A stretch of 56,575 bases of DNA, the filler included, from Platydemus manokwari (Eukaryota), in assembly GCA_037951405.1 (NCBI GenBank). It is 4 parts of 4 records of this genome, joined end to end, with 100 filler letters (N's around TTAATTAATTAA, not from the genome) between each part and the next. Parts side by side here need not be neighbours in the genome. Positions count along the whole stretch, not along the records: positions 20,490 to 34,771 come from JBBMOY011490306.1; 3 more parts are not named here. One strand, written 5' to 3'. Positions 26,560-31,375 of the stretch are shown here, piece after piece; the stretch's first letter is position 1; each line of letters begins with the position of its first letter. A model generated the notes under the pieces. That model ran no database searches, was not told the origin of the DNA, and saw nothing but the letters and a program-made list of their open reading frames with translations. A program made the translations under genes and the position numbers.

Positions 26560-27012
26560 CATTCCATGGTGTACTCTGGTTGCAATTGGTGATCCAACCG
26601 AATGGACCCTGTTTTTCCACCGGGGCTATGGATACTGATGGTGGGCATTTGTCCTTGTGAATGGTGATTTGGTTTTCCGTGATATCGTACAGTAGGGTTA
26701 GCTTATGTGCCTAATACTTGGTTGTTTTTCTCTGCTTCTAGATGTGTAGATGAAACCTCAAAACGATATCGCCGAATGTTGAATATAATTGCATCTAATA
26801 ATTACTGTTGAGGTGTAATGTAGCTTTGTTGGGTGTGTACGAAGATATTTAGTTGTCCGACTTTATTTTATAACGTCGATTTGGTTCTCTTAGTACATGT
26901 TACAGGTTACATCGATATCATTCTATGTAAGTGTCCAGAATGGTCTGACTAGGAGAGACTGGCATGCTACTCCTTGGGCTATCGATATTAGGCTTCGAAA
27001 AGTTAGTACCAT
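26560..27012 (-). pseudogene. Envelope-like N-terminal fragment continuing the integrase frame
   Basis: After the IN tail RYSLRS it reads MVLTFRSLISIAQG|VAC (signal-peptide-like), then VIIRCNYIQHSAISF*GF (C-x10-[TGA]G) and RHIS*PYC. Confidence 0.45.
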
Positions 27013-27059
27013 CAACTGAGATCTTAGTGAGTATCGGTCTCCGCTACTTGGCATGACTT

Positions 27060-30000
27060 TTTCTTCCTGATAACGTTTACATAGATTTACATATACCCAC
27101 ATTTGCGATTTTTGATGCTCAGATCACTACGTTAGCGTCCGTTACTTTTCTCACAGTAAATGGTCCTTTAAAAGAGCGAGCTATCTTGGACGATAATCCC
27201 TTATACAGGTTTTTTGTTCTAGGATGACAAGGTCTCCCACTTTTAACAAATGTTCTTTCGTCCGCTGATTGTATCTTCCTTTAAATTTTTCTTACTGGTA
27301 TTGAGTATACAACTGAACTCTTGGCCATGCTCGGCTTACTTTCTCTTTCATTACTGTTACGTAATTCACTTCGTCCATCTGCTGTACCAGCGTTGGTTCG
27401 ATTTCCAAATCTACCGGCACATTGCTGGTGCGTAGATGCATTAAATAGAAGGATGAATATCCGGTCCCACTATGAGGTGTATTACTATACGCGAACCGGC
27501 AGGATGATAGATGTCCATCCTAATCATTCTATTTGTCGTTGGTGCAGCAAGCTAGCATATTGCCGAAAGTACCGCTGGGTCTCTCGCATTTCCCATTGGT
27601 TTGTGGGTGGTATACAGAAGTAGTCCGTTTCGTGATTCCGAAAAATTGGTTCACCTGGCCTTTGACTTGACTTAGGAACTAGATGAGTCTGTCGGTCAAC
27701 AACTTTTTCGGCACTTCAAATCGGAATATTATTTCCTTGACAAAAATGCGACCGATAGTGTCAGCAGTATGATTTGTGATTGCAAAGGCTTCGACCCATC
27801 GAGTAAGGTTGTCGAAAAACACTAAACCAAACTTATTCTCTTGTTTAGTAGTAGGTAACGGTCCTACAACGTCCATGATAATTATTTCTATAGAGGTGCC
27901 TGGAGTCGGCATCGCTTTCAATGATAGTCTAAATTTCTCCCTGTATTTCTCCAAGTTTGACATACTTTGCATGTGGTACACCATTCGTGTATGTCCTTCA
28001 TATTTAGCAAGTACTACTTCTGTCGTATGCGATTCAGGGTTTTCTTGGTAGAAAGATGTCCTAATAAAGTCCCGCTGTGGTACTTTAGGAGTACTAGGGC
28101 TTTGATTATTTTCATCGGCTTGATACTTCACCATTTCAGTTTGTATGATGAACCTTCCTAATTCACTCTTGATTTGTTTGGGATTTCTGGGCTCCGTAGT
28201 GTGGTCTACTTTTCTTACAACGTTTGACCATTGTTCCTTTTTATTTTCATCATTTTCACGATCTATAGTATATCATCATCTTCCTTTTGCAATGCTGCAT
28301 GTCGTACTGATTATTTAAAGTTTGGCTGGCCATAAGTATTGTTTCAAAAGTGGCTTTGTATTACGTGGCGTCTGCTCGCGATAATGCGTCGGCATTTCCG
28401 TTGGCTTCCCCTTTCCTACAGCATAACTTGATGTTGTTTTGCTGCAGCAATGAGTATTGAGGCTGTATCCCAATGTTGCAATAACCATTGTAAGGGCTTG
28501 TGGTCAGTAAACATGTGGATCTCGTCCATTTACAAATGTTCGGAATCTTTCTACATCGTAGACGATAGCAAGGGCTTATAATACTATTACTGCGTAATTT
28601 TTTTTAATGTTATTTTAACCCTAGGGTATCTTATATTTTTCTCTTTGAGCAGCTGGTCTTTTAGTAGATTGTTACTGTTCCAATTGGAACGGTTTATTCT
28701 TTTGTAGGATCGAGGTCAAGAGAAGAGCTATGGTATTTCCGGTAATAGTTAACTAGTCCCAGAAATTCTTGCACCCGCTTCACTGACATCTCATATCCTA
28801 GGTACTTGATTTCTAGCTTGGCACATTCGCATTTAGTGGGCTTTAAACTGACCTGTATTTCTATAACCTTCTATAGCACTCTCTCTATGGAGATACACGA
28901 GCAGATACTTACGTCGTCTATGTAGACAATTGCATGCTGTACGTCTATCAGAATGATATCCATCGCCCTCTGAAAAACGGTAAGTTGAAATTCCATAACT
29001 GTATACTCGTACAGTCCTTTGCCATCAGTGAAGGCGGTGATAGGTATAGATTCTTCGTCTGTTTCTATGTCATTGTAGCCCGTTTGTAGGTTTAAAGTGG
29101 GAAACAGGTTCGCTTCCAGAACTTGGTTAACCATGTCATCGATTAACGGCAGTATGTAGTTATTCTTCCTAGTTTGCTCGTTTACTTTCCGATAATCGAT
29201 GCACATGCGCATGGTGCCTTCCTTTATCTTTACTAGCCCAATAGGTGATCTACATGGTGAATTACTTGAGCGGATTCTACCCGGGTCTAACAAGGTCTGT
29301 ATCTGGATGGCTATCTCGCTTTCCATAGCAATGGGTGTTCGGTAGGCCCAGTGACAGATAGATTTACTAGTTCTATCTTATGTTTCATGATTTTACATTT
29401 TCCCAGGTCATTTTCATGCCTTGCGATCGACTCGGTATTTATTGAGTACTTCGGTCAGTTGCTTACATTGCTCTGGGATGATATCTTTACTTTCTATCTA
29501 CATGGGTTCATATAGCTTATCTTGGCCTAGGAACACTGTTTTGGCGTTGAAGACATCTACCTTCCCAAGTCTGGTGTTTGTATATAGTTTGATAGGACTA
29601 TTGTTAACGTTTGTGAATTGTATCGGGATTTTTCCGTCTGTCGCTGTGATTCCGCTTCCGAGGGGTACCGCATATAACTTGGTGAAATCTTGGCTTGATT
29701 CAAACATGAGTTCAGGTTCCACGTGGTTGGGGTGTGTTGGCGTAGTATGTAGTTTCGCAGACATAGATTTCCGTATCTCCTAGTCTCTTTAGTTCAGCTT
29801 CCCTGTACTGCAGTCATGTACAATGTCTTTTAATTGTTTTATTGCGTCTTGTACGATTACACAATGGGATGGTGCCTATGTCTATGCTCTAGCTTCAACG
29901 ATCAGAGTTTGGTTACAGATGTTAAGCCGGCCGGGCAATATTCCCAGTAAAGGCAGCTTGGTTCCATTGATTCAGACCATGGGTAACTTCTTTTCAGTCT

Positions 30001-30100
30001 TTTTGAGGCTTTTCATTTCTACATGGTTTACTATTTCGAGTCTAATGATGGTCTTATCAGATCAGGTGTCTATTAGTATCATAACGGAGTGACGGCTGAG
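27060..30100 (-). pseudogene. pol: Gypsy pol pseudogene (protease, RT, RNase H, integrase with GPY/F motif)
   Basis: PR: ILIDT*SDKTII (about 30060). RT: SPIGLVKIKEGTMRMCIDYRKVN and VYIDDV. RNase H: FTDHKPL and GEANGNADALSR. IN: MDVVGPLPTTKQENKFGLVFFDNLTRWVEAFAI...LLTD and KIARSFKGPFTV. The PR-RT-RH-IN order is diagnostic of Ty3/Gypsy. Confidence 0.95.
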
Positions 30101-30419
30101 TCTGATCCGCATTAGGCCGTTTCTCCCTGTAGCCAGGTATAATTACCTGGCTATAATAAGGTTAACTTAATCTACCAGTCCTCGTTGGTTCTGTCTTTTA
30201 ACCCTTAGTTCTTCCTCCTGATTATCGTACATTATCTGGAGTTTTTTCGCTTAGTTCTTGCAATTTCATATGTTCCTTATATCCTTTTTCCGTTTGGTCC
30301 TCTTATTTTACAGGCGGGTACTGTTCGATTTGGATTAGGCGGCATGAAGGTGCGCTAACCATAGACTGATGCTACTATACATCATTCATTCGTATCCGCG
30401 TTTAGCTGGATTTTCTCTA

Positions 30420-31375
30420 TTCAGCTGAGTATTCTTCATTACTTTCTTCATGCGCTGGTTCTGGTGGCTTCCAGATGGTGTGCTATTTCTTTTCCATCAT
30501 CGTCTGCATATTCTGAATTTCCTTCTGGTGTTGGCTGTGCATCGAATGGTCAGCGCATAATGCTACGAGAATTCTTTTGGTGCATCTGAAGGCTTTTTAT
30601 AATACGTATGTTGTCATTGCACGGCGAAACCGTACAGGTGACATAGATGCCTATGCATCCTGCGAAGATTGTCCCAAATGTCATGAAGCTTCTCCTGATT
30701 TTGTACATGACATTCACGTCGGCTTTTCTATAGCGTTCAGTAGTGAACAAGTTTTCATAGACTGTGCCTTTCGTGACTCATCCTGGTAGATTCGTCGGTT
30801 TATCTCGGTGATTCGTTGATCACGCAGTTGAGGAAACATTAAGGCTTTTTGTGCTTCTTCGATTTAAGATTGTATAGCCCCATATTTTCAAGTGAATTAA
30901 TCCGTCTTTATTAACGCGTCCTATTACACTAAGGTTTAGTATCTGCACCGTTAGCCAGGGTAATCCTCGTGATGATAATGTTATCCAAGCGTTCTTGATT
31001 TTGTTCAGTGGGGAGAAGAGTGGTGTACACGTTACTTTTGTAGGTTTAGCAATTGGCTCCATATATCTAGTCTTCCCTTGATAGGTGACTTTTGTGCATT
31101 CGTGTTTCTGGGCAATCACGACTTCGTCCTCAATGCAATGAAACTCATACCTTGCCATACTACTCCATTTCCATGATGATGGCTTGATTAAATCTGGATT
31201 TGATATTGCAATAGCAAACCTGTTTCGTTAAATTTTCCTGCCTAGTTGGTAGTTGGGTATTAGTGTTTCCTGGTACATTTTGAGTAACTGTGACTGGAGG
31301 TCGTGGTAGAGGAAGTCAACTTTATTTTCATGGAGCTGGGTAATTTGATGTCTTTCTCGTGAAATGTTTGTATGT
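30420..31375 (-). pseudogene. env: Chuvirus/herpes-gB-type (class III) envelope glycoprotein, C-terminal half, decayed
   Basis: Across frameshifts it reads NKVDFLYHDLQSQLLKMYQETL...RNRFAIAISNPD...YEFHCIEDEVVIAQKHEC..VTYQGKTRYMEP...VTCTPLFSPLNKIKNAWITL...SLENMGLY..IEEAQKALMFPQ...FMTFGTIFAGCIGIY...TYVL*KAFRCTKRILVALC. This is collinear with the motif series I recall for chuvirus-like glycoproteins (APD, C.P.EV..C, C.P..PP.Y, GIY...MFP, F..FG..SAG TM). Confidence 0.8.

Follow-up and report, generated by a model that had tools for sequence, protein, structure and literature searches.

A decayed gypsy element in the Platydemus manokwari genome

The window analysed here, a stretch of 56,575 nucleotides (filler included) from Platydemus manokwari (assembly GCA_037951405.1) that joins four parts of four records, enabled us to examine the organization of a retroelement locus on the part taken from JBBMOY011490306.1 (positions 20,490 to 34,771). 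The locus, which occupies about 31380 to 26545 of the minus strand, is a decayed Ty3/gypsy element truncated at both sides, and its GC content of 37-42% is clearly set off from the 21-26% of the flanks. The most satisfactory explanation, which we hold with good confidence, is a doubly truncated copy of an element whose intact relatives encode, in one frame, gag, an envelope glycoprotein (env), protease (PR), reverse transcriptase (RT), RNase H (RH), integrase (IN) and a second membrane protein, the 3' end of the copy being a likely remnant of the latter. The composition shift near 31380 is sharp; the env sequence ends there and a multi-copy repeat starts, and the absence of gag and of the N-terminal half of env is therefore attributed to a cut at this point. 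On the 3' side, an element-like GC content of 37-39% persists to about 26545. The copy is riddled with stops, frameshifts and deletions, and its env and protease are read in different frames. Neither the gag profile nor the exonuclease profile found a match at the locus, the window shows no trace of the exonuclease-like open reading frame (ORF) described below, and gag and long terminal repeats (LTRs) are absent from the truncated copy. Having lost both ends together with gag and the N-half of env, the copy is dead and cannot be active.

The 5' part of the copy (30492-31371, minus strand, as are all element features below) is the C-half of an env glycoprotein, probably of gB/chuvirus type, with stops and internal deletions. 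When translated with X at stops for the Pfam comparison, this region matches the viral fusion glycoprotein PF24664 above the cut-off (E 2.2e-7, 29.7 bits, cut-off 27) over profile positions 305-563 of 653. A profile built from the env of relatives (656 positions) aligns only over positions 319-637, at the 5' end of the copy, and, with frameshifts allowed, the env C-half profile reaches 133 bits over the region that it represents, compared with a null of 17 (z about 70). In a tblastn comparison, the env fragment is 30% identical to the closest relative, locus L006 (E 1e-26). The env profile returned no gB match among PDB sequences and two weak protease matches only; the class III fold of env of the herpes simplex virus (HSV) gB/chuvirus type is taken from PMC13524379, and the assignment here is a PF24664 sequence match. 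The env membrane anchor lies near 30690-30625, followed by the cytoplasmic tail and a linker to the protease (30116-30620) with a GC content of 40%, no zinc knuckle and no LTR.

The decayed aspartic protease (29800-30115) matches PF13975 at E 0.12, and a pol profile of seven relatives aligns from its position 10 at 30115. The spacer between protease and RT (29400-29800) aligns continuously with the relatives and, by its position, probably corresponds to the dUTPase-like region that the planarian element Burro has at this place (PMC6431247). It is followed by RT with internal deletions (28733-29377; PF00078, E 1.6e-8), RNase H spread over three frames (28370-28608; PF17917, E 0.008, and tblastn pieces) and integrase (27019-28103; PF17921, E 5e-11; PF00665, E 5e-7). 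The integrase retains the zinc finger, the core, the GPY/F C-terminal domain and a tail motif at 27036, shares 48% identity with that of L006, and is covered by the pol profile up to position 1141 of 1142 at 27016. The copy thus shows the PR-RT-RH-IN order of Ty3/gypsy elements with gypsy-type RT and integrase, together with env directly upstream of pol as in GAG-ENV-POL errantiviruses. An earlier note on this DNA had described a decayed env C-half running on the same strand into the protease and onward through RT, RNase H and integrase, and the matches to PF24664 and to the Pfam and pol profiles, found in that order, bear this out.

The env-protease junction is covered by one single-copy contig of a public sequencing run (29822-31324) with 0 differences, and a second single-copy contig of the same run covers the stretch from integrase to the 3' end (26173-28699), also with 0 differences. 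The run is possibly the window's own source data, and the contigs show no more than that a scaffolding error is unlikely at either junction. One multi-copy contig (depth 388.8, compared with about 12-19 for single-copy ones) seems to hold pieces of env, spacer, RT and RNase H; it was not used to establish domain order because the env-to-pol joint is absent among the joints listed (15 of 85).

Position of env in the relatives

Searched against the full library, the env fragment returned 16 matches, all of them PF24664 proteins. Eight of the 16 contain an aspartic protease as well, in every case downstream of env, and three extend into RT. P0142 (3003 amino acids) and P0144 (4844 amino acids) were added from cluster look-ups, and a scan with the relatives' pol alignment kept 80 metagenome and 8 genome loci. 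An env match is present in three of these 88 loci (L001, L002 and L006), each time upstream of pol within one ORF of 3184-3703 codons, and env after pol was found in none of the 88 (ORFs of at least 100 codons); L003, L004, L005 and L007 begin too late to show env. Gag knuckles are present in the relatives, and in L006 they come first, followed by env, protease, RT, RNase H and integrase. Nothing was retrieved by a word-based homolog search with the env fragment, by locus scans of three collections with the env alignment, or by a pol alignment scan of viral contigs; a further homolog search gave generic gypsy pol only, at 25-39% identity.

The env-first proteins are also the best pol matches of the window. 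They are colinear with it, and their integrase identity of 40-48% compares with 28-39% for the next gypsy pol rows. An integrase tree of 46 rows, made up of the window and the best 45 of 80 qualifying rows, places the window as sister to L006 (99/96) inside a clade of 13 rows (100/99), and env lies upstream in all seven env-bearing rows of this clade. P0144, an ankyrin-containing protein, falls within the clade as well, though not as the nearest row.

The distance between the env anchor motif and the first protease motif is about 200 codons in the window. Of 13 relatives, 11 have 124-232 residues there and the remaining two 384 and 835; a 14th relative gave no motif match. No CCHC knuckle occurs between env and protease in any of the 13. 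Since the intact relatives combine a single-ORF gag-env-PR-RT-RH-IN order with a similar distance and no knuckle, the junction in the window is normal for the family, and env upstream of the protease is, judging from these sequences, its norm. The earlier observation of a linker free of CCHC knuckles and LTRs holds, and both its length and its lack of a knuckle recur in the relatives.

The env-before-pol order is already known and published. In the planarian giant gypsy element Burro/GYPSM1, env lies in frame between gag and pol, as in the relatives here (PMC6431247). GAG-ENV-POL errantiviruses of Nematoda, Bryozoa and Platyhelminthes carry a gB-type env upstream of a Ty3/gypsy pol, an order also seen here (PMC13524379), and six such families are recorded in Schmidtea with up to 215 copies (PMC13524379, supplement 1). 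Because this order is known, the copy in the window is unremarkable as a fossil; the addition to current knowledge comes from the conserved second membrane protein that its family carries after the integrase.

A second membrane protein after the integrase

Complete C-termini were available for ten relatives (P0127, P0138, P0142, P0144 and L001-L006), and all ten have a signal-like hydrophobic segment after the integrase and a terminal membrane anchor. An in-frame ectodomain of approximately 100-390 residues lies after the integrase and is closed by the anchor with a short tail, some relatives first inserting extra proteases or ankyrin repeats. Four hydrophobic segments are found in the relatives: the env signal, the env anchor, the post-integrase signal and the C-terminal anchor. 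One to three units, each consisting of two cysteines and a fibronectin type III (FN3)-like motif, were identified in eight of the ten. In L001, ORF residues 1585-1770 form an extra signal-FN3-anchor module between env and protease, which indicates that one polyprotein can contain a duplicate of the module.

The ectodomain of L002, folded together with three relatives, was modelled as two beta-sandwiches with a predicted local distance difference test (pLDDT) score of 67. FN3 domains are the best matches of this model (Foldseek, E 1e-7), and its single domains align with FN3 in VIA-align at Z of about 9 and a root-mean-square deviation of 2.5-3.0 over 82-85 residues; alignments at Z 8.9-9.0 have a deviation of 2.5-2.6 over 82 residues. 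Its matches in a viral library are FN3-rich too, and an Atlas search with a relative's module gave FN3 at 0.88, a lead only. The second ectodomain is predicted to consist of FN3 domains in most relatives. A post-integrase FN3 membrane protein was not found in the literature searched, although Repbase and deposited POL C-terminal models may mention the module. The words 'fibronectin' and 'FN3' are absent from the text and supplements of PMC13524379, as far as consulted, and in this description the GAG-ENV-POL errantiviruses differ from the family. The protein is therefore likely an undescribed variant feature.

In the window, the integrase frame runs on into a decayed, signal-led stretch (26545-27018) whose anchor would have been lost by truncation. 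The signal of L006 starts five residues past the integrase tail motif; in the window, the tail motif at 27036 is directly followed by the most hydrophobic stretch of the 3' end (hydropathy 1.73 over 15 residues at 26991, integrase frame), at the position of the internal signal of L006. The profile of the FN3-like unit gives a sub-threshold match at 26997-26896 in the same frame, and with frameshifts allowed it scores 24.7 bits on the 3' end, bettered by 2 of 200 shuffles and ranking 8 of 196 real segments. By its position, and with a weak sequence match, this stretch is probably a remnant of the family's second, post-integrase membrane protein. The signal-led ORF that had been noted here survives as a weakly hydrophobic start in the integrase frame, but the frame is not open, with 7 stops in 200 codons.

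Several observations weigh against this reading. The level of 24.7 bits is also reached by seven unrelated segments of the window, and the env C-half profile reaches a similar level on the same 3' DNA (0 of 60 shuffles as high). The averaged module profile gives z -0.65 on the 3' end, and all 12 post-integrase or second-ORF segments of relatives compared with it stay at shuffle level. L006, although the closest relative, has no cysteine motif and is missed by the unit profile, its single-sequence module model is unusable (pLDDT 31), and L005 lacks the motif as well; the evidence for the FN3 fold consequently covers only part of the family. Nor are the relatives fully independent, with L001-L005 sharing one dataset prefix and P0142/P0126 and P0144/P0130 sharing clusters. 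Among the sequences compared there is no intact copy of the window's exact family, and no LTR pair was found in the L001-L006 contigs, which may be incomplete.

The explanation that best survives beside the remnant reading accepts a GAG-ENV-POL copy and takes the 3' stretch for decayed 3' sequence or for an accessory ORF unrelated to the family's second membrane protein. The lack of a significant sequence match to any relative's module, the 7 stops and a hydropathy below the 2.0 or more of the relatives all fit it. However, the element-like GC content runs on through the stretch, the hydrophobic segment is placed as in L006, and the module is so variable that the unit profile misses even L006, which leaves this explanation rather unlikely.

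Considerably less probable is a second, more distant env after the integrase, either as one of two envs or in an env-first/env-last recombinant. Inspected by eye, the cysteines of the 3' frame have an env-like spacing, the averaged env N-half profile gives z 1.9 on the 3' end, and the single N-half of P0125 beat all but 2 of 40 shuffles. These scores are discounted, since the chance level is marked by the env C-half profile, which performs equally well on this DNA. The other five of six single N-halves remain at shuffle level, and so does the N-half profile with frameshifts allowed (27080-26500; 43 of 60 shuffles as high or higher). No Pfam match, to PF24664 or otherwise, was obtained in the three frames of the 3' ORF at E up to 10, the 656-position env profile that detects the C-half so strongly finds nothing there, and no env lies downstream of pol in L001-L006. 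The identification of the 3' ORF as the env N-half, as the earlier note had it, is contradicted by these Pfam, profile and shuffle tests.

Also proposed there was an env that is split or circularly permuted, or else a tandem dimer of a gag-pol-env element in which a deletion removed LTR and gag. The presence of the env C-half alone, the absence of gag and the env-to-pol joint missing among those listed for the multi-copy contig would suit this explanation, but it is rejected as the least probable of all because intact relatives keep the whole env in frame before the protease with the same short, knuckle-free linker and none after the integrase, the composition break and repeat near 31380 explain the lost N-half and gag, and the 3' end holds no env N-half. 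The remaining proposal, env upstream of or fused to pol plus a second downstream glycoprotein, describes the family correctly in its order and in the presence of a downstream membrane protein; the downstream piece is not part of env, however, and the env-first order was already published.

Possible topology, known elements and surroundings

Under the reading of a gag-env-pol polyprotein with a second membrane protein, standard polyprotein topology would have the chain thread the endoplasmic reticulum membrane, with gag cytosolic and env lumenal after an internal signal. Pol would be cytosolic between the env anchor and the second internal signal, and the FN3 ectodomain would be lumenal and anchored, an arrangement that implies membrane tethering of pol on both sides during its synthesis. 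Signal peptidase and the element's own protease may then release the parts. Env would act as the fusogen that fuses membranes, and the second protein, on the particle or the cell surface, would most likely be an attachment protein, a receptor decoy being the rival role. Fusion proteins of the gB type usually depend on a partner that binds the receptor, as in herpesviruses. We tentatively propose, as a possibility on the lesser side of even, that the clade is a two-glycoprotein retroelement with four membrane crossings, a gB-type fusogen before pol and an FN3 attachment protein after the integrase, in a herpesvirus-like split of roles. Such a split between fusion and attachment proteins was not found in the literature searched for any LTR retrotransposon. 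An FN3 surface protein that is conserved as part of this polyprotein is a concrete candidate for target-cell choice, or may be a captured receptor decoy.

Compared by description, Burro resembles the family further in its dUTPase-like region between protease and RT, to which the spacer in the window likely corresponds, its env matches mononegavirus fusion glycoproteins (PMC6431247), and the relatives give ankyrin, ubiquitin-like and weak Bcl-2 matches. These matches comprise ankyrin repeats in P0144, L003 and L004, ubiquitin-like matches in L002 and L006 (weak), and a weak Bcl-2 match in P0129. Burro differs in its ORF of 4873 amino acids, compared with 3184 in L006 and 2627 in P0127, the shorter closest relatives, and the consulted description in PMC6431247 mentions no post-integrase membrane or FN3 domain. 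Its traits of a single 4900-amino-acid ORF, BCL2, BIR, ankyrin and more than 30 kb stand against a 4.8-kb fragment in the window. The env domain I motif visible in the Schmidtea rows (PMC13524379 supplement) recurs in the relatives, 12 of 13 having YQE at that position, and this by-eye comparison points to the flatworm GAG-ENV-POL group.

One or two related exonuclease-like ORFs lie downstream of the polyprotein in all six of L001-L006 (L001:10617-12104, L002:12085-13470, L003:6861-9920, L004:7268-10371, L005:5011-6525 and L006:9958-11778), four of them with PF00929. The rotifer LTR elements Juno and Vesta likewise have a DEDDy exonuclease in ORF3 but, in contrast to the relatives here, carry no env (PMC5408684). 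The six Schmidtea families are listed without LTR or primer site (PMC13524379, supplement 1), and 3' extensions as long as those of L001-L006 could place their LTRs beyond the 3-kb flanks searched in that study. Two to seven copies of the aspartic protease, some after the integrase, occur in P0125, P0130, P0133, P0136, P0138, P0142, P0144, L003, L004 and L005. The record of P0127 (HBK71150.1), a complete polyprotein of an env-pol retrotransposon, assigns it to a Flavobacteriaceae metagenome-assembled genome, and the sequence is likely animal DNA in a bacterial bin.

The flanks of the element (24500-26500 and 31400-34700) gave no informative Pfam match. A very high-copy repeat without Pfam match (25500-26170, summed depth up to about 24,000) adjoins its 3' end. 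On the other side, a decayed, A-rich, coding-like and multi-copy stretch (31850-33300, plus strand; summed depth 185-1467) has a membrane-like segment near 32690-32750 and no informative Pfam or pol match. The host DNA is AT-rich and of animal type, with exons for an innexin (38078-39076, minus strand), an RGS domain (13632-14078, minus strand) and a LIM domain (43062-43535, plus strand) elsewhere in the window.

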